Assembly: GCA_038063195.1 (NCBI GenBank)
Contig: JBBTVO010000011.1
Span: forward strand, 1-62,050
From: Patescibacteria group bacterium
GTDB taxonomy: Bacteria > Patescibacteriota > Microgenomatia > Levybacterales > UBA12049
Direction: 5' to 3'
DNA: 62,050 bases
Both the position numbers and the translations under genes were made by a program. Positions 4,523 through 61,378 of the stretch are shown one piece after another. The notes beneath the pieces were generated by a model that saw only the letters and a program-made list of their open reading frames with translations, ran no database searches and was not told the DNA's origin. The first letter of the stretch is position 1. Each line of letters starts with the position of its first letter.

Positions 4523-4545
4523 TTCCGATCCCGATTTAATCGGGA

Positions 4546-5142
4546 TTATTTACCTACTATAACAACAGCATCAGAAGAAGAACTTGAGGGCAAATCAGAA
4601 GTTGCAGATCCTATGGTATATTCCGAACTCAAATCTTTCTTAATAAGCGGCAGAAAATCACTTTCTGTACTTTTAACCTGGATCGTAATGTCTGAATAAT
4701 TGAAATTATCTGCATTTCCCGTAGAAACAACATCATATCCAAGGTTTTTTAGTATATCGGCTGCTTTACCGGCTACGCCACTCTCTCCGCTTCCGTTTTG
4801 AACAATAACTTTTAAGTCTTTCCTGTCAAGCCCAGTTACTTTGTCTACTGAATTTACAGACGTTTTTGGAGTAGGAGATGGCGTAGGCTTAGAAGTTGGG
4901 CTTGGAGTCACTTCTTCCGTGATAGTGGGAGCAGGAGTATCGGTTGGGATTATAAACTCCTCCGTTGGGGTCGGGGTAATTTCCGCATTCTCATTGGTCG
5001 TATTTGTGCCTAAAACTTTTGAACCTACATAAATAAGAAGGAGAATAAAAACTATTGCAAAAAATAAAAATACGAACCTTTTTCTTTTTTTCGAGGCAGT
5101 CTTGTTATCTAAAGACGGAGATGGAAATGGGTTTTCGTCCAT
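4546..5142 (-). CDS. membrane-anchored LytR_C (cell-envelope-related transcriptional-attenuator C-terminal) domain protein
   Basis: 198 aa. N-terminal TM helix, Pro/Thr-rich linker, C-terminal VIVQNGSGESGVAGKAADILKNLGYDV typical of the LytR_C domain. Confidence 0.7.
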   Translation of the reverse strand: MDENPFPSPSLDNKTASKKRKRFVFLFFAIVFILLLIYVGSKVLGTNTTNENAEITPTPTEEFIIPTDTPAPTITEEVTPSPTSKPTPSPTPKTSVNSVDKVTGLDRKDLKVIVQNGSGESGVAGKAADILKNLGYDVVSTGNADNFNYSDITIQVKSTESDFLPLIKKDLSSEYTIGSATSDLPSSSSSDAVVIVGK

Positions 5143-7904: not shown

Positions 7905-9641
7905 ATGCCGGATGGTGAAAATATCTCGGTTGCAAAAATTGCAGCAACTCCCACTGCCTCCTCGTGGTCGCAGGCTTACAACGCAGGAAAGCTTTTTGCG
8001 GTAATATCTTTATCGAAAGAGGCTTCAGAAGAAGATGGGAAAGATTTTCTAAATATACTTGGCAAAGACGTAATAGAAACGCTCGAGCAGGAATTTTTTG
8101 GTCTTGAAACCAAAGACCTAACTTCTATAAAGAAGGCTTTTGAGGAAGCTTCGAAAAAAATCCCCGAAGAAGTTGAAGCTTCATTCTTAGCATCTTCAAT
8201 TGTAAAAGACATAATCTACGTATTTCATAAAGGAGAGGCACGGGTCAGTCTTAAAAGAGGCGGTGAATTTGGAGTATTAATTGATTCAAAAGAAGAAATA
8301 GGTGCATCTTCCGGGATGATAAAAAATGATGATATCTTAATTCTTCAAACCCAACAATTCAAAGAACTTGTACCTTCCAGTGTTTTGACTAAAGCTCTTG
8401 ACCAGGAATCTCCAAGTGATGTCGCAGAAGCCTTGGCTCCCTTAATTCACCGTGAGGAAAAGGGAGGAGCAGCTGCAATTATTCTTCAATATAAAGCAAA
8501 GCAGGAGGAGGCAGTTCCGCAAACCATGGATGAAAAAGAAATGGAAGATGAGAAACAAGAAAGTTCTTCCGCAAGTAAATTTAATTTACCCGCATTTATT
8601 GCAAAATTAAGCTCACTAATAAAAGTTCCAAGTCTGAAAAAGATTAGTCACTCGCGGAAACTAATACTTACAATCATCATCATAATTGCGGCTCTTTTCC
8701 TTGTAATAGTTGTGCTTTCGGTAAAAAATCAGAATGAAGCAAAAAATAAAGCTTTCTTTGAAAGCATTTATAAACCGTCAGTTGAAAAGTTTAAAGAAGG
8801 AGAAAGCTTGCTTACACTTAACAAGAATCTTGCGAGGGATAATTTCTCAGAGGCTTACAAAATTCTAAATGAAAATAGAGATAAGTTTCCGAAAAATTCA
8901 AAAGAAGAGAAACAAATTCTTGAACTTTTAGAAAAAACACAAAAAGCACTTGGGGAAAGTTCTGGAGTGAGTAAAATTGAGGCAAAAGAAGAAAAAGAAG
9001 ACGCGAGTCCACTATTGCAAACTGTAAACAAAACAAACACGAACTATATATCGCAAGACGACAAAAATATTTATTTTATAAAAAAGGGCGTAGTATCTCA
9101 CGACAAGGGAAATAATAAAGAAAAAACGATAATAGAGGAGGAAGATTTACCCACGTCTATCGGAGGGCTTTCGGGATATAACGGAAATGTTTACGTACTG
9201 GATAAGGAAGAAAACCAAATTTATAAATTCGCAGGTGCAGATTATTCAAAGTCCAATTACTTCAAATCTCCGCCGGATCTGTCAAGTGCAAAAACAATTG
9301 CGATTGACGGATCTATCTGGATTCTTCTTAATGGGAGTATAGAGAAATTCACGAAAGGAATTTCAGATAACTTTAATATTACAAGGCTTGATAATCCTCT
9401 GTCTGCTCCAACAAGGATTTTTACAGATGCAAATACTGACAATGTGTATATTCTTGATAACGGCAATTCAAGGATCGTGGTTCTAAATAAAAGCGGCGAA
9501 TATCAGGCACAATACCAAACAGATATTCTAAAAAATGCAAAAGATTTTGAAGTAAAAGAAAAAGACCTGCCTGCCGGCAGGCAGGGCGAAATCATTTATA
9601 TTTTATCCGGCGGAAAAATATATTCTATTAAACTTCAGTAA
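7905..9641 (+). CDS. membrane protein: PP2C/SpoIIE-like N-terminal domain, TM helix, C-terminal NHL-like beta-propeller repeats
   Basis: The ATG at 7905 is preferred over the TTG at 7887 because the upstream ORF ends at 7900. The N-terminal ~200 aa resemble PP2C-like phosphatases weakly. TM segment LILTIIIIIAALFLVIVVL. Repeats such as NVYVLDKEENQIYKF and NVYILDNGNSRIVVLNKSGEY. Confidence 0.55.
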   Translation: MPDGENISVAKIAATPTASSWSQAYNAGKLFAVISLSKEASEEDGKDFLNILGKDVIETLEQEFFGLETKDLTSIKKAFEEASKKIPEEVEASFLASSIVKDIIYVFHKGEARVSLKRGGEFGVLIDSKEEIGASSGMIKNDDILILQTQQFKELVPSSVLTKALDQESPSDVAEALAPLIHREEKGGAAAIILQYKAKQEEAVPQTMDEKEMEDEKQESSSASKFNLPAFIAKLSSLIKVPSLKKISHSRKLILTIIIIIAALFLVIVVLSVKNQNEAKNKAFFESIYKPSVEKFKEGESLLTLNKNLARDNFSEAYKILNENRDKFPKNSKEEKQILELLEKTQKALGESSGVSKIEAKEEKEDASPLLQTVNKTNTNYISQDDKNIYFIKKGVVSHDKGNNKEKTIIEEEDLPTSIGGLSGYNGNVYVLDKEENQIYKFAGADYSKSNYFKSPPDLSSAKTIAIDGSIWILLNGSIEKFTKGISDNFNITRLDNPLSAPTRIFTDANTDNVYILDNGNSRIVVLNKSGEYQAQYQTDILKNAKDFEVKEKDLPAGRQGEIIYILSGGKIYSIKLQ

Positions 9642-9677
9642 TTTTACTTTTGAGCCTCTTTCCACTATCATTAAAGC

Positions 9678-10109
9678 GTGAAAATAACCAATAAGAAGGC
9701 ATTTTTAAATTACCAGATTATTGAGAAAATTGAGGCGGGAATAAATCTTTTGGGCTCCGAAGTCAAGGCTGTGCGACAAGGCATGGCTGATCTATCGGGA
9801 AGTTTTGCAAAAGTAATCGGAAGCGAAATTTATCTTATAAATGCGAAAATTTTTCCATACAAATATGCAAGACCCGAAGGCTATGATGAGAAAAGAACCA
9901 GAAAGCTTCTTCTTCACAGAAGTGAAATTATAGCCATAAAATCGCGTATTGATGGCGCCAATCTTTCGGTCATTCCTCTTTCAATGTATACAACCAAAGC
10001 TTTCATAAAGGTGGAGCTTGGGCTTGGAAAAGGTAAAAAAGAATATCAAAAAAAAGAAGCAAAAAAGAAAAAAGATATACAGCGCTCCATCGAACAAGAA
10101 CTCTCCTAG
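9678..10109 (+). CDS. smpB: SsrA-binding protein SmpB
   Basis: 143 aa, GTG start. NKKAFLNYQIIEKIEAGINLLGSEVKAVR and the basic C-terminal tail are typical of SmpB. Confidence 0.9.
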   Translation: MKITNKKAFLNYQIIEKIEAGINLLGSEVKAVRQGMADLSGSFAKVIGSEIYLINAKIFPYKYARPEGYDEKRTRKLLLHRSEIIAIKSRIDGANLSVIPLSMYTTKAFIKVELGLGKGKKEYQKKEAKKKKDIQRSIEQELS

Positions 10110-10158
10110 CTTTCCTTTAAGGAATTTGGAAGTTATCGCAAGGGGCTATTGAAGCAAG
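10105..10158. repeat. degenerate copy of the cassette-junction motif (3' side of a minus-strand cassette gene)
   Basis: cctagctttcctttaaggaatttggaagttatcgcaagg...attgaagcaagattatta aligns with the junction copies at 11390-11457, 12759-12811 and 13300-13365. Overlaps the smpB stop codon. Confidence 0.6.
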
Positions 10159-10162
10159 ATTA

Positions 10163-10837
10163 TTATTTTCCTCTTTGGAGAAAGCCTTTAACCATAGCCA
10201 CAGGACCACGACTATACCGTGACTTGAGTTCTCTCACTTGTTCTCCTGTTAGCCAATTTTCCGTGTATGAATGGACTGAATCTGGCTCAACTGCTCCAGT
10301 TGTTACACCATGCTCATATTCGTAAACTGCGTCTGCAGATAAAGTATCAGGATAAATCCTAACCCATGTTCGCCTTTTTATATCTCTTAGGTCTGTAGTT
10401 TTTAATTCTCCCACCTTTCTGCCTGCTAGCTCTACTGTTTCTGGCTCAGTTGTTTCGATTACTTCAGTTTTATCAGTCCGTAAAGTTCCAATAATTTCAT
10501 CATAATACAATCTCCCAAGGTCGATTCCACCATCAATTCTATTACGAGCTCTGTCTATCGAAGTTGAGTCAACTTCTGCAATTAAGTTTTTCATAAACGA
10601 ATTTAATCTATCCACATCAAACTCAGGATTTTTTGGAGATACGATTATGCTTACAAACTCGGTAAAATATCCACGCTGCGGAGCGTATGAATCGTACTTG
10701 TGTAGTTCTCCAGCAAGATGCACATCAGGATTGGCTTTTAGTAGCTCTCTTACTGTATCAATTTTTGTTCTCGGTCTTTCAGGAGTAGCTGATGCCTCAC
10801 CAGCTCCTCGTGCATTACCAGTTGGAAACTCTGTCAT
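10163..10837 (-). CDS. hypothetical protein, paralogue A of a two-member family in this window
   Basis: Collinear with 13372-14046 (MTEFPTGNARGAGEAS... vs MTEIPTSHSRGAGEVS..., both ending GFLQRGK). The start at 10837 was chosen by alignment to the paralogue and by the promoter 7 nt upstream. Confidence 0.7.
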   Translation of the reverse strand: MTEFPTGNARGAGEASATPERPRTKIDTVRELLKANPDVHLAGELHKYDSYAPQRGYFTEFVSIIVSPKNPEFDVDRLNSFMKNLIAEVDSTSIDRARNRIDGGIDLGRLYYDEIIGTLRTDKTEVIETTEPETVELAGRKVGELKTTDLRDIKRRTWVRIYPDTLSADAVYEYEHGVTTGAVEPDSVHSYTENWLTGEQVRELKSRYSRGPVAMVKGFLQRGK

Positions 10838-10844
10838 GGCAAGA

Positions 10845-10873
10845 AATATACCAGAAAGCAAACCAAAAATCAA
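10845..10873 (-). promoter_or_regulatory. cassette promoter TTGATT-17-TATATT
   Basis: Minus strand reads ...ccacaaacagtcctatagcTTGATT, 17-nt spacer, TATATT, 7 nt, ATG. The upstream motif is shared with two other cassette promoters. Confidence 0.55.
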
Positions 10874-10949
10874 GCTATAGGACTGTTTGTGGTTTACCAC
10901 GCAAAGCTAATTACTGAAAGTAATGAGCGAAGTGTGGACATTTCGGAAA

Positions 10950-11204
10950 TTAAATTAGGCGTTTATTCCTGAAAGCAAATCCAGAACTAGACTTTAGATA
11001 TTTTTCAAACTCTAGAGCTTTCTTTTTAGATTCAAAAGCAGAGTAATAAATTAGCTTAATTGGTCTTAAATTTTTTGTGGAAGCGATTAATCCTTGCGCA
11101 TGAGCTTTGATTCTTTTTTTCAAATCTGTAGAAAACCCATGATAATAAGTCTTATCTTTTAATCTAAGAATATAAACGTAGTACACACATAAATAATACA
11201 ACAA
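10950..11204 (-). CDS. GIY-YIG nuclease domain protein
   Basis: YYVYILRLKDKTYYHGFSTDLKKRIKAHAQG matches the GIY-YIG (URI) motif. The likely true start is the GTG at 11186, giving MYYVYIL. The TTG at 11204 is simply the longest ORF. Confidence 0.75.
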   Translation of the reverse strand: MLYYLCVYYVYILRLKDKTYYHGFSTDLKKRIKAHAQGLIASTKNLRPIKLIYYSAFESKKKALEFEKYLKSSSGFAFRNKRLI

Positions 11205-11327
11205 AAAATGTCCCCCTTCGCATAAAGCTTCGGTAGGGACACTCTTCGTTATTTAGCCAACTTTATTTTTCTTTAGAAGTGTGGCTTGCCACTTCGTAGC
11301 TCATAGGTTCCAACTCATGAGCGAAGA

Positions 11328-11457
11328 GTGGACATTTCAGAAATAAAGTGGAATCAGATTGAAGAGTATGTCTTTAAATGGTATCCCCGCCTTCAGAATA
11401 TGAACCTAGCTTCGCTTTGAGGAATTTATAGAGTTATCACAAGGGAGTGTTGGAACA
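11328..11457. repeat. 130-nt cassette-junction repeat, copy 1
   Basis: gtggacatttcagaaataaagtggaatcagattgaagagtatgtctttaaatggtatccccgccttcagaatatgaacctagcttcgctttgaggaatttatagagttatcacaagg... is near-identical to 13236-13365. Confidence 0.9.
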
Positions 11458-11469
11458 GTATAATTCAGT

Positions 11470-12297
11470 TTAGTCATCAATCATTCTTACATCAACCTTT
11501 TTTAATTTCTTAACTTCCTTCTTAACCTCTTTTATATGCTTTTCAGGAGATAGATCTTCTGGAAGTACTCCTCCGATCTCTTTAATCGTTTGTCGTACCT
11601 TGCCCCCTACCATATTGTGAGTACTTATCGCTGCTTGCTCATCTCTTGTTTCATCTTTTCTTAGTTTTTCGTCTGTCTGTGTTATCCTGAAGAGATTCGC
11701 AGCCAATTCAGTTGAGCCTGCTCTATCTAATAATTCTCCTTTTTTTATTCCCTTTTTTTTCTCAACCTCTTTAAGAGGCATCCCATACAGACCTTTGTAT
11801 CCTGCGTCATTAAAAACTCCGAACATCCTAACTCCTGCTTTTTGTGCCACCCGAGCAAGTTTTTTATTGTGATCAGATACTTCATTGCGTGTAAACAGGC
11901 GCTTTTCGCTTTCTGACAGATTGTCGTAAACCTCTTGTCTTCTTGTTTGAACTGCGAAATATGTCTGAGCAAAAGCAATCTCGGGTTTCTTGGAATCTCC
12001 ATTTTGAGCAATTAAGTAGCATGCATATCTATCTAATTTCCAGTCTTTAAGTTTTCTAATAGTGTTGTATCCTACGGTAACCAATTTACTGACATCAATA
12101 AAATGATTATCCACATACTGTCCACTCTTAATTGAGGCTACTTGTGCTTTTTTTATAACCTCTTCAAAATTTTGCCAATTTGCGTATCCAAGCACTATCA
12201 TCAACTCCCTAGCTGTCCAGTATTCCGTGCCATTTTCGTCTACTTTCTTGAGGTTTTCAAAGTTTTTATTGAGAGTAGCCGGTAAATTATAACTCAT
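11470..12297 (-). CDS. dinD: DNA-damage-inducible protein D (DinD family)
   Basis: Collinear resemblance to E. coli DinD as I recall it (WTARELMIVLGY, RYACYLIAQNGD..KPEIAFAQTYFAVQTRRQE, EKRLFTRNEV, GSTELAANLFRITQT, GGKVRQTI). Start at the internal ATG 12297, which has TTGAGT-17-TATAGT upstream. Confidence 0.8.
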   Translation of the reverse strand: MSYNLPATLNKNFENLKKVDENGTEYWTARELMIVLGYANWQNFEEVIKKAQVASIKSGQYVDNHFIDVSKLVTVGYNTIRKLKDWKLDRYACYLIAQNGDSKKPEIAFAQTYFAVQTRRQEVYDNLSESEKRLFTRNEVSDHNKKLARVAQKAGVRMFGVFNDAGYKGLYGMPLKEVEKKKGIKKGELLDRAGSTELAANLFRITQTDEKLRKDETRDEQAAISTHNMVGGKVRQTIKEIGGVLPEDLSPEKHIKEVKKEVKKLKKVDVRMIDD

Positions 12298-12307
12298 AAG
12301 TTTTACT

Positions 12308-12336
12308 ACTATAGCACCAGAGAAACTACAACTCAA
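12308..12336 (-). promoter_or_regulatory. promoter of dinD (TTGAGT-17-TATAGT)
   Basis: Hexamers and 17-nt spacing read on the minus strand; 10 nt from the -10 element to the ATG. Confidence 0.5.
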
Positions 12337-12436
12337 TAGTTCATCAAAAAAGAAAATGCCTATTACTTTTGCTCCCAGAGTACTTGCAGTTAATGATACT
12401 ATTTGATATACTTCATAACCAAATCTGGCATAGTAT

Positions 12437-12739
12437 ATGGAAGACAACGGAAATTCTATTGGATCTTTTATAGGTGGAGCAATAATCATAGGAATTGTTT
12501 GGTTCTTATTCTCAGGTTCAGGTAAATATGAAGGCGAAAATGCTGAATATTGGTATAACGAATATGACGCAGAAACTGCTGTATCAGAGAGCTATAAGAC
12601 AGCTCTTGAAGAAGCGAACTCAAATATTGAAGAGGCAAATGATATGATTGATAATGCAAAGTCTTATGATGATGCAGAAAGCCTTATAGACGGTGTGAAT
12701 AGTCTTGAAGAAATAGAAACAGTTGCTGAGCCTTATTAA
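12437..12739 (+). CDS. small membrane-anchored acidic protein, unknown function
   Basis: 100 aa. N-terminal TM helix (GGAIIIGIVWFLF) and acidic coiled C-terminus. The only plus-strand ORF in the array. Confidence 0.5.
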   Translation: MEDNGNSIGSFIGGAIIIGIVWFLFSGSGKYEGENAEYWYNEYDAETAVSESYKTALEEANSNIEEANDMIDNAKSYDDAESLIDGVNSLEEIETVAEPY

Positions 12740-12758
12740 ACCTCTCCTTTAGAAACCA

Positions 12759-12811
12759 AACCTAGCTTCGCTTTAAGGAATTTAGAAGAATATCACTAGG
12801 AAGTATTGGAA
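12759..12811. repeat. short copy of the cassette-junction motif
   Basis: aacctagcttcgctttaaggaatttagaagaatatcactaggaagtattggaa matches the 3' half of the 130-nt junction repeat. Confidence 0.8.
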
Positions 12812-12813
12812 TC

Positions 12814-13182
12814 TTATCTTGCCGTAGCTAAAGGATGTGGAAGTCCTAACAAAGACATTCCGATAGGACTTTTTGCAGGAGCAACTGGTTTTACTATTAT
12901 GTTGAGCTCAGGGTCGTTTGGCGTTTCTACACTAAATACAGTTTGCATGTCATCGCTTAATCTGTACTTAATTGTTCCAGACGGTGCCCTACCCTGAGAT
13001 AAAAGACGATTTAGAGCAGCGTCATATCTATTTTGTAAAGATGTCCCAACTCTTTCAGCGGTATCCAGGAAGGATGACTGAGCTTTATCCACAGACTCAA
13101 TTGTTCTGCGTAATTGGTCTGCTTTTTGTTCAAACTTTTCAAATGCTTTATGGTAGTTTTTGTCGCCTTCTGCGGTACTCAT
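12814..13182 (-). CDS. hypothetical protein
   Basis: 122-aa ORF with its own consensus promoter 9 nt upstream. No recognisable motif. Confidence 0.55.
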   Translation of the reverse strand: MSTAEGDKNYHKAFEKFEQKADQLRRTIESVDKAQSSFLDTAERVGTSLQNRYDAALNRLLSQGRAPSGTIKYRLSDDMQTVFSVETPNDPELNIIVKPVAPAKSPIGMSLLGLPHPLATAR

Positions 13183-13191
13183 AATCGTTGA

Positions 13192-13220
13192 ATTTTACTA
13201 CAAAAAGAGGATTTTGTCAA
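13192..13220 (-). promoter_or_regulatory. cassette promoter TTGACA-17-TAAAAT
   Basis: Minus strand reads tccacaaatagtcctatagcTTGACA, 17-nt spacer, TAAAAT, 9 nt, ATG. Confidence 0.65.
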
Positions 13221-13235
13221 GCTATAGGACTATTT

Positions 13236-13365
13236 GTGGACATTTCAGGAATAAAGTGGAATCAGATTGAAGAGTATGTCTTTAAATGGTATCCCCGCCC
13301 TCAGAATATGAACCTAGCTTCGCTTTGAGGAATTTATAGAGTTATCACAAGGAAGTATTGGAACA
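13236..13365. repeat. 130-nt cassette-junction repeat, copy 2
   Basis: Near-identical to 11328-11457, with a handful of substitutions by eye. Confidence 0.9.
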
Positions 13366-13371
13366 AGATTA

Positions 13372-14046
13372 TTATTTGCCTCTTTGAAGAAAACCTATTA
13401 CCTTAGATACAGGACCACGACTATGCTGTGCCTTAAGTTCTCTTATTTGTTCTCCTCTAAGCCAATGTTGTGTATAACCGTGAATCGAATTTGGTTCAAT
13501 AGTTCCATTTATTACCCCTTGCTCATACTCGTATACTTCATGGGCTGAAAGAGTATCGGGATAAACTCTAACCCAGGTTCTTCTTTGTAACGGCTTTATT
13601 TCTTCAGCTTTTGTTTCTCCGACTTTCTTACCAGCTCGCTGTACAGTTTCTAGCTCAGTTGTTTCGATTGTTTCAGTTCTCTCAATTCGTATCAAGCCAA
13701 TAGCTTCATCATAATATAGCTTGCCGAGATGTATTCCTCCATCATTTTCTTCATAGGCACGGTCTTTTGCAGATAAGTCAACTTCAGTAATTAAACCATC
13801 CATATAAACATTTAGCTTATCAACATCAAATTGGGGATTTGTAGGAGCGACAATCATACTTACTGTTTCAGTCCAGTAGCCAACATTGGGAGCATCTGGA
13901 TGAAAATCATGTATTTCTCCCGCAAAATATACATCTTTGTTAGCCTGCAGTTGCTCTCTAACAGCAGCAATTTTTGTTTTTGGTCTCTCAGAGGGAGGCG
14001 ATACTTCACCAGCTCCTCGTGAATGACTGGTTGGAATCTCTGTCAT
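13372..14046 (-). CDS. hypothetical protein, paralogue B
   Basis: Collinear with 10163-10837. Start at the ATG 14046, 8 nt downstream of the -10 element. Confidence 0.7.
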   Translation of the reverse strand: MTEIPTSHSRGAGEVSPPSERPKTKIAAVREQLQANKDVYFAGEIHDFHPDAPNVGYWTETVSMIVAPTNPQFDVDKLNVYMDGLITEVDLSAKDRAYEENDGGIHLGKLYYDEAIGLIRIERTETIETTELETVQRAGKKVGETKAEEIKPLQRRTWVRVYPDTLSAHEVYEYEQGVINGTIEPNSIHGYTQHWLRGEQIRELKAQHSRGPVSKVIGFLQRGK

Positions 14047-14054
14047 ACTTGCGG

Positions 14055-14083
14055 AGTATACCACATACGAGGCTAGCCGTCAA
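14055..14083 (-). promoter_or_regulatory. cassette promoter TTGACG-17-TATACT, immediately downstream of the tmRNA 3' end
   Basis: Minus strand reads ...catctccacaaatagtcctatagcTTGACG, 17-nt spacer, TATACT, 8 nt, ATG. Confidence 0.6.
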
Positions 14084-14099
14084 GCTATAGGACTATTTG

Positions 14100-14457
14100 T
14101 GGAGATGTCGAGTAGTGAGCTCGAGTCCAAGAAGGTAAAGTAAAAACGTCTACAAGCTTATCTGATTTTTAATCTCGCAATATTCTCCCCAACCAGAAGG
14201 AAACAAATATTGCAAAGGTTGAAAGTTCGGATAAAAAGCCAACCAACTTCTTATCTATAGCTCAACTTTATTTATGCCTTATAAAATCTCGTTGAGAAAG
14301 ATTTTACAGACACTTCGACATGCTTAAGCAGCTAGTGCATAAGCGTATCTCGGGCTAGAATCTCTTCCAGCATTTATTTTTTGACTCTGTTTTACGACTG
14401 TCATCAAAGTCGGCTTGCAGTTTTTAAAGTACAATCCTGTCGATGCAATGCATCCCC
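14100..14457 (-). ncRNA. ssrA: tmRNA (SsrA)
   Basis: Minus strand starts GGGGATGCATTGCATCGACAGGATT. The 3' end ...GGACTCGAGCTCACTACTCGACATCTCCA pairs with the 5' end to form a 7-bp acceptor stem containing a G3:U wobble, the alanine identity element. Internal frame GCT GGA AGA GAT TCT AGC CCG AGA TAC GCT TAT GCA CTA GCT GCT TAA (14324-14371) encodes a tag ending YALAA. About 358 nt. CCA is not encoded (CAA follows). Confidence 0.85.
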
Positions 14458-14466
14458 AAGGGCTAG

Positions 14467-14496
14467 ATTATAGCATATTTTGAAGCCAAAAGTCAA
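14467..14496 (-). promoter_or_regulatory. ssrA promoter TTGACT-18-TGcTATAAT
   Basis: Minus strand reads TTGACT, 18-nt spacer, TATAAT preceded by TGc, then 9 nt to the GGGG 5' end of the tmRNA. Confidence 0.7.
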
Positions 14497-14505
14497 TCTA
14501 AGCTG

Positions 14506-14533
14506 TTGACAAATTATTCTTTAGTGCTAAAAT
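14506..14533 (+). promoter_or_regulatory. promoter TTGACA-16-TAAAAT for the 79-aa ORF
   Basis: Consensus hexamers. The ATG at 14540 lies 6 nt after the -10 element with no Shine-Dalgarno sequence, so a leaderless transcript is likely. Confidence 0.6.
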
Positions 14534-14539
14534 GAGCTC

Positions 14540-14779
14540 ATGGAAAGAAGAATAGGTATATCAAAAGGTCCAAACCGAGCAACGCCTGTATACAGACCAG
14601 ATACCCGAACACCAGAGGAATATCAAAGAGACTTAGCTAAACTACAACCAACCTCAGTGGCAAGAGAAGGATCAATAAAGGGCACGAGAATAACCATTGG
14701 GAGATTTGCGAAAAGACTAAATAAACAACGAGGAATTCCACAAGGATTATCCCCGGTTAAACAATTAACCGCGCGCTAA
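14540..14779 (+). CDS. small basic hypothetical protein
   Basis: 79-aa Arg/Lys-rich ORF behind a near-consensus promoter. Its 3' end overlaps the convergent comF by 15 nt. Confidence 0.5.
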   Translation: MERRIGISKGPNRATPVYRPDTRTPEEYQRDLAKLQPTSVAREGSIKGTRITIGRFAKRLNKQRGIPQGLSPVKQLTAR

Positions 14780-59472: not shown

Positions 59473-59727
59473 CTAGAAATTTACAGGAGTAATGGTCCAG
59501 TTGTCTTGAGAAGTTTTAGGTTCCTGTGCTTTTGCTACTGGTTTAGCCTCTTTTACTAAAGAATTTAGAAGCTCCTCGTTTGCTTTATTTAGCTTCTCAT
59601 CTTTTTTTGAAAAAGGCACAAAAGATACATTCTTAGGCAACTTAGATAGTTTTGGTGTACTCACTAAATAATCAAGAAGCTTTTGAGTTAAATCTATATT
59701 TTTTTGGGTTTGTTTTTTCTTACTCAT
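59473..59727 (-). CDS. hypothetical protein (84 aa)
   Basis: Lys-rich ORF downstream of and co-oriented with 59784-60209. Confidence 0.45.
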   Translation of the reverse strand: MSKKKQTQKNIDLTQKLLDYLVSTPKLSKLPKNVSFVPFSKKDEKLNKANEELLNSLVKEAKPVAKAQEPKTSQDNWTITPVNF

Positions 59728-59783
59728 GTCTAAAATATATCACCTTTCTGTTATAGGAGTGTAATAATACAATATATTTTTGG

Positions 59784-61102: not shown

Positions 61103-61378
61103 TTGATACAATACTTTTGTATGCAAACGACTATTTCACTTCCTAGAAATTTAGCACAAGAGGTAGAAAAGCAAGTTAAGAAAGGAAAGTTTAGGACACC
61201 TTCTGAGTTTGTCAACTCTGCCGTAAAAACTCTTCTTTCTTTTCAGAAAGGGGAGCTTACTTGGGAAACTCTCGCAAGCCCTTTCCGGTCTTATGCAAAG
61301 CAAAAAAAACTTACAGAGAAAGATCTTCTTCAAGCTGTAATGAAAGGCAGACGTGCAAAAACCTCCAAGAATAGTTAA
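61103..61378 (+). CDS. ribbon-helix-helix antitoxin
   Basis: TISLPRNLAQEVEKQVKKGKFRTPSEFVNSAVKTLL is RHH-like. The start may instead be the ATG at 61121. Confidence 0.65.
   Translation: MIQYFCMQTTISLPRNLAQEVEKQVKKGKFRTPSEFVNSAVKTLLSFQKGELTWETLASPFRSYAKQKKLTEKDLLQAVMKGRRAKTSKNS

Follow-up and report, generated by a model that had tools for sequence, protein, structure and literature searches.

The specificity of Seg and I-TevI-type GIY-YIG enzymes is determined by a DNA-binding domain, and in IS608 a guide pairs with the cleavage site. Single-domain GIY-YIG nucleases are known from the Ssn family (SsnA/NTS, Neisseria; Chenal et al. 2025, PMC11893778), whose members cut single-stranded DNA beside hairpin repeats flanking their own genes; that study showed the recognition of single-stranded hairpin DNA, noted the insertion-sequence-like layout NTS-ssnA-NTS, and described the characterised GIY-YIG nucleases as modular. 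In bacteria of the candidate phyla radiation (CPR), rRNA genes carry non-intron insertions that encode GIY-YIG proteins (PMC11270868). We analysed a 62,050-nt stretch of DNA from a Patescibacteria group bacterium (JBBTVO010000011.1, hereafter the window), which is contig C11 of a 913-kb genome in 47 contigs with ∼38% G+C (hereafter G000) and in which a 78-codon GIY-YIG nuclease gene and its leader lie between two 28-nt direct repeats. A reading made from the letters alone (the original prediction) had taken this unit for a small mobile, homing-endonuclease-like element with a target-site duplication or recombination footprint. Its mobile character holds up in substance, given an empty site in a second genome of the genus (G001), patchily distributed relatives, and GIY-YIG genes that differ in position between G000 and G001. 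We put at somewhat better than even (roughly 0.55) the probability that the segment is one copy of a small, site-specific, presence-variable cassette of the Microgenomates (CPR), ∼378 nt long and made up of a leader and a 78-residue nuclease, seated on a look-alike of its usual landing site. The features of the unit and its borders are as follows.

10889 to 10933, minus strand: stump of an older cassette leader, ACTTCGCTCATTACTTTCAGTAATTAGCTTTGCGTGGTAAACCAC, made up of S1, hairpin A and hairpin B and ending exactly after the CCAC of hairpin B.
10923 to 10950, no strand: left 28-nt repeat copy, in gene orientation ATTTCCGAAATGTCCAC then ACTTCGCTCAT, adjoining the GIY-YIG stop codon.
10934 to 10953, plus strand: duplicated first ∼20 nt of the small open reading frame (ORF), GTGGACATTTCGGAAATTAA; single copy in G001, and here split from the remaining ORF by the cassette.
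10950 to 11186, minus strand: GIY-YIG nuclease gene, 78 aa, GTG start at 11186, stop codon at 10950-10952, single catalytic domain.
11187 to 11208, minus strand: spacer, with a −10-like box TATTAT at 11193-11198, 6 nt before the GTG, and a T-run at 11203-11208 after hairpin C.
11209 to 11241, minus strand: hairpin C, TGTCCC...GGGACA, terminator-like and followed by the T-run; 98.8% of alignment cells paired, two of four pairs changing on both sides.
11240 to 11248, minus strand: S3, the 3' strand of helix P1, CGAAGAGTG; pairs with the junction CAC-TCTTCG, 94.2% paired.
11276 to 11295, minus strand: hairpin B, GAAGTGG-CAAG-CCACACTTC, whose 3' arm repeats the junction motif CCAC-N-CTTC.
11299 to 11322, minus strand: hairpin A, GCTCAT...ATGAGC; the sequence varies with pairing kept, and five of five pairs change on both sides.
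11317 to 11344, no strand: right 28-nt repeat copy, 26/28 identical to 10923-10950, in gene orientation ATTTCTGAAATGTCCAC then TCTTCGCTCAT.
11322 to 11330, minus strand: S1, the 5' strand of P1, CACTCTTCG; it opens with CAC, which belongs to the landing site and, read in antisense, is the small ORF's GTG start.
11328 to 11420, plus strand: small ORF of 30 aa, MDISEIKWNQIEEYVFKWYPRLQNMNLASL, the first part of repeat D2; its antisense end ...ATGTCCAC is the landing site.

G001, a genome of the same genus that was compared with G000 by BLAST and by direct reading of the sequence, provides a true empty site. Positions 59558-59641 of its contig C33 match 10870-10953 of the window at 95% and positions 59611-59748 match 11317-11454 at 83%, the two matches overlapping by 31 nt; the sequence there (...GTCAAGCTATAGGACTGTTTGTGG-TTTACCACGCGAAGCTAATTTCTGAAAGTA-ATGAGCGAAGTGTGGACATTTCAGGAAT-TAAGTGGAATCAG...) has both flanks contiguous, one repeat copy and no gene, which answers the filled-versus-empty alignment that the original prediction had proposed. 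The two genomes differ by 394 nt (the unit plus one repeat copy) as one piece, which may have been gained in G000 or lost in G001. A whole-site global alignment of the two genomes by MAFFT was set aside because it misplaced the gap, and the BLAST coordinates and the sequence as read were used instead. Filled and empty alleles are found in genus g51 as well, where eight of the ten tmRNA loci read show CCAC followed by a plain terminator (AACTAAAAAACCCGCC...GGGTTTTTT) and the other two carry the cassette exactly there. GIY-YIG genes number about nine in G000 and six in G001 and are for the most part linked to different RNA genes; one tRNA-Gly site is occupied in G001 and vacant in G000, and tRNA-Trp has different GIY-YIG cassette types in the two genomes. 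Several GIY-YIG genes are placed at contig ends, a position that fits repeats or population variation and is proof of neither. We regard mobility as well supported and return below to its mechanism, which we infer.

Relatives were sought by nucleotide search in 245 genomes of the order, representing 103 genera, and by a wider scan of other species. The gene with 150 nt upstream recurs at 66–77% nucleotide identity in 33 of these genomes and 25 of the genera, and the scan yielded 80 further loci, each from a different species, that span Levy-, Roizman-, Shapiro-, Woese-, Ames-, Davies- and Gottesmanbacteria and others; with the window copy included, ∼107 loci of the subfamily could be compared. 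The protein has at least 1457 relatives, mostly of 78 aa, the closest of which carry the labels Candidatus Levybacteria or Microgenomates. Cassettes sit immediately 3' of TCCAC, usually at the end of a tmRNA gene or tRNA-Ala. The unit starts exactly at the tmRNA 3' end in L010, L011, L014, L015 and L017 (Rfam matches) and exactly at the tRNA-Ala 3' end in L013; among the 80 further loci, 44 lie behind a tmRNA end under strict criteria (visual inspection adds several, ...CGTCTCCAC), 7 to ∼12 behind tRNA-Ala (...GGTCCAC) and one behind tRNA-Arg, and two or three adjoin the start codon of a small ORF. In a poorly resolved tree of the 78-residue protein, copies linked to tRNA and to tmRNA intermingle, as do several candidate phyla, and the well-supported branches force at least 5–6 changes of site type.

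The window cassette is not behind an RNA gene. What precedes S1 is, in antisense, GTGGACATTTCAGAAATAAAG..., the start (GTGGAC) of the 30-codon ORF that opens D2, a 138-nt repeat with copies at 11328-11465 and 13236-13373. The peptide of this small ORF (MD-x-x-E-I-x-W-N-Q-I-E-x-Y-x-F-K-W...) is conserved in three genomes of other genera (G109, G169 and G223), in each of which the cassette adjoins the start codon, and small ORF and cassette occur together also at L066, L069 and L124, the first two being the G169 and G109 loci, respectively. Its antisense end, ...GAAATGTCCAC, resembles both the tmRNA end (...CGACATCTCCAC) and the tRNA-Ala end (...GGGTCCAC). A short site ending in TCCAC appears to suffice as a landing site for the cassette family, and the window copy would have used a look-alike 2.8 kb away from the real tmRNA end.

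The region upstream of the gene (11205-11316, ∼110 nt) was correctly singled out by the original prediction, which saw two hairpin-capable segments in it; the count is three conserved hairpins, within a structured, non-coding leader of ∼150 nt. The layout is common to the ∼107 loci and reads, in gene orientation, ...TCCAC followed by NCTTCG(C) (S1), hairpin A, hairpin B (CTACGAAGTGG-loop-CCACACTTC), an A-rich spacer, S3 (CGAAG-N-GTG), hairpin C (GTCCC...GGGAC, often with a T-run), a TACAAT/TATAAT-like box 6–10 nt before the start codon, and the 78-residue ORF. In a covariation test on an alignment of 21 leaders with four helices (P1, formed by S1 and S3, and hairpins A, B and C), 90.1% of cells were paired as compared with 81.4% in column shuffles (0 of 500 reached the observed value), pairing dropped to 33–50% when partners were slid by 1–3 columns, and 11 pairs changed on both sides. 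P1 takes in the CAC of the landing site; its variable pair is UA in 10, AU in 7 and CG in 2 sequences, and pairing is retained in the CTTCA/TGAAG and CTCCG/CGGAG variants. The leader fold is, at the level of aligned sequences, supported by covariation. The minimum-energy fold of the single sequence (z = −5.0) favours an extended hairpin C and another partner for S1, and the comparative structure was used in preference to it. Rfam returned no known RNA family for the leader, even at E values up to 10. At the position of the TATTAT box relatives carry TACAAT or TATAAT; the promoter scan did not call the window's box as a promoter, and we read it as a putative promoter that would yield a leaderless nuclease mRNA.

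The protein is a bare catalytic domain. It belongs to the GIY-YIG superfamily by Pfam (PF01541; E = 4.3e-16, 59.4 bits against a cut-off of 22.6, covering residues 8-75 of the 84-aa frame), which bears out the GIY-YIG ORF that had been proposed between the repeats without mention of its strand (minus). The motif residues are YVY...YHG, the R in KKRIKAH, the E in FEKYLK and the N in FRNK, and the protein aligns to 1zg2. The program-made ORF list starts the gene at TTG 11204, and comparison with relatives sets the start at GTG 11186 (MYYVYIL...). UPF0213 proteins are the nearest solved relatives (1zg2, BH0048, E = 1.2e-10 over residues 2-66; 1ywl, EF2693, E = 4e-5), and the single domain with its likeness to BH0048 and EF2693 places the protein with the UPF0213/Slx1-like stand-alone GIY-YIG proteins of ∼80–107 residues; NCBIfam models gave no match to the 78-residue protein. 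The homing-endonuclease-like enzyme of the original prediction is not one of the classical kind: filled and empty alleles exist (G001 and the tmRNA ends of genus g51), but the 78-residue domain has no DNA-binding domain attached and its solved relatives are of the UPF0213 kind.

Compared with the closest relative, P0002 on metagenome contig L062 (86% amino-acid identity), the gene shows dN = 0.09, dS = 2.3 and dN/dS = 0.04, and nucleotide identity is 78% for the gene and 85% for the non-coding leader. Both gene and leader are under purifying selection, strong in the gene, with the leader better kept than the silent sites of the gene. Selection this strong, with the leader kept still better and nearly all cassette copies intact, would also suit a domesticated partner of tmRNA and tRNA-Ala (active, e.g., in 3'-end maturation or quality control) that is inherited vertically with frequent loss, the arrangement in the window then being a by-product of local rearrangement; the constant linkage to RNA genes whose acceptor ends are of the alanine type and the pairing of P1 with the 3' tail of the RNA gene are in keeping with this. 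However, the cassette is present in only ∼13% of the order's genomes (nucleotide search) and at two of ten tmRNA loci in one genus, the site type has switched repeatedly on the tree, the window and three or four other genomes have the cassette at a protein-coding start that resembles an RNA end, and leaders may be stacked (G212) or truncated (the stump), so that we consider domestication decidedly improbable. The cassette gene of G006 (L014) has a +1 frameshift in an A-run, G212 has two tandem leaders ahead of one gene, and in G114 and G223 a further hairpin module separates hairpin C from the gene; taken together, these cases suggest that cassettes arrived at one and the same site more than once and decayed there.

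The two 28-mers lie where the original prediction had placed them, with two differences in 28 positions, and a search allowing up to 3 mismatches found just these two copies in the window (0 expected from 100 shuffles) and the 28-mer has no other copies in the 913-kb genome. The ∼30 nt that it had noted between ...ctgtttgtgg and the left copy are likewise real (10893-10922). Likeness between the copies extends 3–4 nt past the 28-mer, to ∼32 nt with 4 mismatches, and the GIY-YIG stop codon (10950-10952) shares the last base of the left copy. From its parts, the 28-mer is a composite of a landing-site duplicate of 17–21 nt and an 11-nt piece, NCTTCGCTCAT. The first part is 17 nt of the small-ORF start (∼20 nt with the adjoining TTA/TAA counted); the second equals the conserved first bases of two successive cassettes and recurs because a remnant of an older cassette, the 45-nt stump, follows immediately downstream. 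Only the first part is a true landing-site duplication, and the target-site duplication of the original prediction thus stands for these 17–21 nt, whereas the other 11 nt are a shared cassette 5' end. When the junction region was compared with the 400–450 nt past the stop codon, no flanking repeats comparable to those of the window were found in 27 loci of the order or at the 80 loci of the wider scan.

In its hairpin B, GCGTGGTAAACCAC, the stump matches the G091/L061 cassette letter for letter, and it differs in subtype from the full leader (ACTTCG with GCGTGGTAAACCAC as against TCTTCG with CTACGAAGTGG). The stump is found in G001 as well and is therefore older than the split of the two genomes. 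These observations bear on the simplest explanation, a local tandem duplication with decay, or a chance likeness, in which no mobile or recombination process takes part. Both repeat copies do begin leader-like sequence (the full leader and the stump), as a duplication would have it, but leader and stump are different subtypes, each nearer to the cassettes of other genomes, no 28-mer is expected by chance, and G001 has the stump without the unit. We find this explanation hardly credible, and the larger tandem duplication that the original prediction had named as a possible source of the 28-mers is disfavoured by the same differences of subtype and by the G001 stump.

The cassette locus is placed between smpB (9678-10109, plus) and the tmRNA gene (14457-14097, minus), the sole Rfam match within 9600-14600. 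Three further features of this interval are needed here.

10845 to 10892, minus strand: promoter module of a 245-aa gene, AAACAGTCCTATAGC-TTGATT-17-TATATT, joined to the CCAC of the stump; repeat family D4, promoter-like site 10873-10845.
13216 to 13260, no strand: paralogous junction at which the start of D2 is joined to the promoter module, without the 41 nt at 10893-10933 that the G001 empty site keeps.
14097 to 14457, minus strand: tmRNA gene (Rfam RF00023, 107 bits), 3' end ...CGACATCTCCAC.

At the tmRNA 3' end of the window the promoter module comes next and no cassette is present. The junction at 13216-13260 had been taken for the uninterrupted counterpart of the split site; it does join the two halves, but as a paralogue that lacks the 41 nt it is not the empty site. 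All five junctions of the interval lie directly behind CCAC (the tmRNA, D2 twice, a 20-nt D2 fragment, and hairpin B of the stump), and G000 and G001 share an 84-nt promoter-stump-repeat module at 95% identity amid neighbouring genes that differ and coding DNA at ∼68–78%. Because CCAC stands at all junctions and the module is so well kept among differing neighbours, CCAC-centred recombination appears to shuffle units in the interval, and the GIY-YIG unit may have been shuffled in this manner, not by its own enzyme.

On this explanation the GIY-YIG unit would be passive cargo, one unit of an integron-like smpB-ssrA array that recombines at CCAC, whose units end ...GAAATGTCCAC and for which the repeat is the recombination site. 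The junctions and the shared module speak for it, as does L062, where a tmRNA 3' end 94.6% identical to that of the window is joined directly to the closest cassette relative (81% identity): by comparison, the window has a 2.8-kb block (14098-11331) exactly between the CCAC of the tmRNA and the cassette, starting with the promoter module AAATAGTCCTATAGCTTGAC and ending with D2 ...GTCCAC. Insertion of a 2.8-kb array between the tmRNA and a resident cassette, which this comparison supports, was not retained as a separate candidate and is kept as part of the passive-cargo explanation; the resident-cassette idea leaves the 20-nt ORF fragment and the stump after the gene unexplained. Against passive cargo, no integrase was recognised in the interval by ORF, Pfam and NCBIfam checks, the cassette stands alone behind tmRNA or tRNA-Ala in ∼100 other genomes with no array, and the G001 tmRNA gene is inverted relative to that of G000 with nothing behind its CCAC. 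It is a possible explanation that we hold to be, on balance, unlikely.

Returning to the site-specific cassette, the data show the family, its site preference and patchy distribution, the empty site, the fold, and the selection on gene and leader; the substrate and cleavage point of the nuclease, the direction of the event and the manner of spread are what we infer in the following scheme. Since the nuclease has no DNA-binding domain, it probably recognises the structure of DNA (or RNA). S3 of the leader would pair with the junction CAC-NCTTCG while hairpin B displays a second copy of CCAC-N-CTTC in its stem; the nuclease would break the DNA after CCAC, and the cassette would be copied in by host recombination or repair, the target end being duplicated at times. 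Structure-guided cutting is suggested because P1 covaries, hairpin B mimics the junction, and the breakpoints fall after CCAC. The leader would also give the upstream RNA gene a replacement terminator (hairpin C with its T-run) and the nuclease gene a promoter. By analogy, one may go further and envisage an autonomous element of <400 bp with a structure-aimed nuclease whose cut site is set partly by the S3:junction pairing, in the guide manner of IS200/IS605, but this stronger version we consider quite doubtful. The cassette is widespread and apparently selfish in these ultra-small (CPR) bacteria.

Several observations weigh against this scheme or parts of it. On the L062 comparison, with its 2.8-kb block, the cassette could be the resident and not the newcomer. 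GIY-YIG enzymes hydrolyse DNA and do not join ends, and the insertion chemistry therefore has to come from the host. Other copies of the unit, sought as the original prediction had suggested, turn up as relatives in 33 of the 245 genomes of the order and in 80 further species but not in G000, which has no second copy of the unit, of the 28-mer or of hairpins B and C, and movement within this genome is thus without support. The flanking repeat, considered as a family signature, was ruled out because it is absent at the ∼106 other loci of the subfamily, and the duplication at the window locus may be incidental. Furthermore, the repeat copies have 2 mismatches over 28 positions (4 over 32), and the single G001 copy looks like a mixture of both, which would be compatible with either gain or loss. 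In the leader, the counts of G-U and A-C pairs (20 vs 13) are too weak to tell a sense transcript (RNA) from a DNA fold.

Some further observations concern GIY-YIG genes and hairpins elsewhere in G000. A GIY-YIG gene of a different subfamily behind tRNA-Glu (C10, 100-315) has an exact 47-nt flanking repeat made of 19 nt of the tRNA 3' end and 28 nt of trailer, and in G018, of another genus, the homologous tRNA-Glu cassette is followed by a copy of the last 18–19 nt of tRNA-Glu; the tRNA-Glu-linked subfamily thus has a flanking target-end repeat in two genera. The tRNA-Glu contigs C45:9600-10003 and C10:1-500 (L002 and L001/L146) overlap by 55 nt, so that tRNA-Glu has a mini GIY-YIG gene to either side; the 47-nt repeat flanks the downstream gene, and a short copy of the first 12 nt of the tRNA lies upstream of the other. 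At C38:4090-4970 (L005/L007), tRNA-Gln lies between two GIY-YIG genes, with a tRNA 5' fragment upstream of the first; in a second, degenerate tRNA-Gln (4538-4640) an insert of ∼50 nt replaces the anticodon-arm region. A few hairpins elsewhere (C24, C19) match just the CCGAAGC...GCGAAGG core.

Within the smpB-ssrA interval, a module AA(A/T)AGTCCTATAGC fused to a −35 box (TTGAC/TTGAT), with a −10 box 17 nt on, stands at 14079-14103, 13216-13240 and 10870-10892, where it heads three minus-strand genes, each copy starting right behind CCAC; another copy lies at C29:3967-3987 of G000. The second part of D2 is a ∼50-nt tail (CCTAGCTTCGCTTTGAGGAATTT...TATCACAAGG.AGT.TTGGAAC) that recurs behind both the smpB stop codon and the end of a 100-aa ORF (10105-10155, 12741-12811). 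Units resembling D2 are present in several further genera (G163, G109, G169, G223, G030, G029), and a further small-ORF-start fragment, TGTGGACATTTCAGGA, lies at ∼61280-61300 of G001:C33 (L144), ∼110 nt upstream of the G001 tmRNA promoter. A 339-aa ORF at 11470-12489 (minus), which we count as cargo in the interval, matches the NCBIfam equivalog DinD (DNA damage-inducible protein D; E = 4.8e-100) and has a Bro-N domain. Paralogous ∼225-aa proteins (10163-10837 and 13372-14046, minus), matched by no Pfam or NCBIfam model, take the first and last places of the interval, and an unrelated 318-aa gene takes the corresponding place in G001.

If the site-specific cassette is as we describe it, it would be among the smallest self-contained bacterial mobile units (∼378 bp, with a 78-residue protein and a structured leader), and such cassettes would parasitise tmRNA and tRNA gene ends while replacing the terminator they displace. 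This would explain the many tiny GIY-YIG genes by CPR RNA genes, the assembly breaks found there, and the tRNA-end fragments and hairpin stumps. The covarying pairing of leader and junction offers a testable idea of how a site may be found without a DNA-binding domain, links the cassette to Ssn, and may have uses as a tool; were the structure-guided version true, it would define a new class of minimal element with a nuclease that is, in principle, re-aimable. To this the window contributes a clean within-genus pair of filled and empty sites, the stump, and the dissection of the repeat.

As compared with known systems, the cassette shares features with several. Integrative islands that target tRNA or tmRNA genes have an integrase and repeats of the target RNA gene's 3' end; the unit described here encodes only the GIY-YIG protein. 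Its repeat contains a look-alike of the tmRNA end (by comparison with the tmRNA 3' end sequence), the ∼106 related loci have no repeat, and the tRNA-Glu-linked subfamily has one in two genera. The UPF0213/YhbQ/Slx1-like proteins (1zg2, BH0048; 1ywl, EF2693) are the best whole-protein matches, with the same size and motifs; to our knowledge, UPF0213-type proteins are encoded by single-copy host genes for which no association with RNA-gene ends or a structured leader is reported, and 1zg2 and 1ywl were deposited merely as hypothetical UPF0213 proteins. With IS200/IS605 elements the cassette has in common insertion 3' of a short specific sequence, mostly without target duplication, and subterminal hairpins, and the S3 strand by the hairpin foot, which pairs with the junction, recalls the IS608 guide by analogy only. 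Unlike these elements it has no HUH (Y1) transposase, its only ORF being a GIY-YIG gene for a hydrolase incapable of covalent strand transfer, and no right-end hairpin of the cassette was found, the unit ending at the stop codon.

The Seg genes of T-even phages (e.g., SegB in the T4 tRNA gene cluster; PMC2330249) are likewise free-standing GIY-YIG genes between other genes, by tRNA-type genes and variable in presence; the window protein differs from Seg and I-TevI in having 78 residues and no DNA-binding domain, and a conserved structured leader travels with its gene. The rRNA gene insertions share CPR hosts, small GIY-YIG genes in or at structural RNA genes, and the lack of an intron, but they concern rRNA genes only, and the words "tRNA" and "tmRNA" each occur 0 times in that report (PMC11270868). 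Judged by titles and abstracts and by the text of PMC11270868, none of the papers that the literature searches listed appears to describe the tRNA/tmRNA-linked cassette. As for Ssn (cd10448), the SRM motif of that family (used as HGTCWYN(0-2)YYVSBRHN(0-5)WNVSBRGN(0-2)RNCYNB) was not found near the gene and had one match in the genome as compared with 0–4 in shuffles, i.e., no enrichment; G000 has no genome-wide repeat family, and the cassette family of the window is tied to tmRNA and tRNA-Ala 3' ends, whereas "tRNA" occurs 0 times in PMC11893778. Ssn would nonetheless be the closest characterised analogue in behaviour, both being bare GIY-YIG domains of ∼80–95 residues that lack a DNA-binding domain and are bordered by conserved hairpin-forming flanks.

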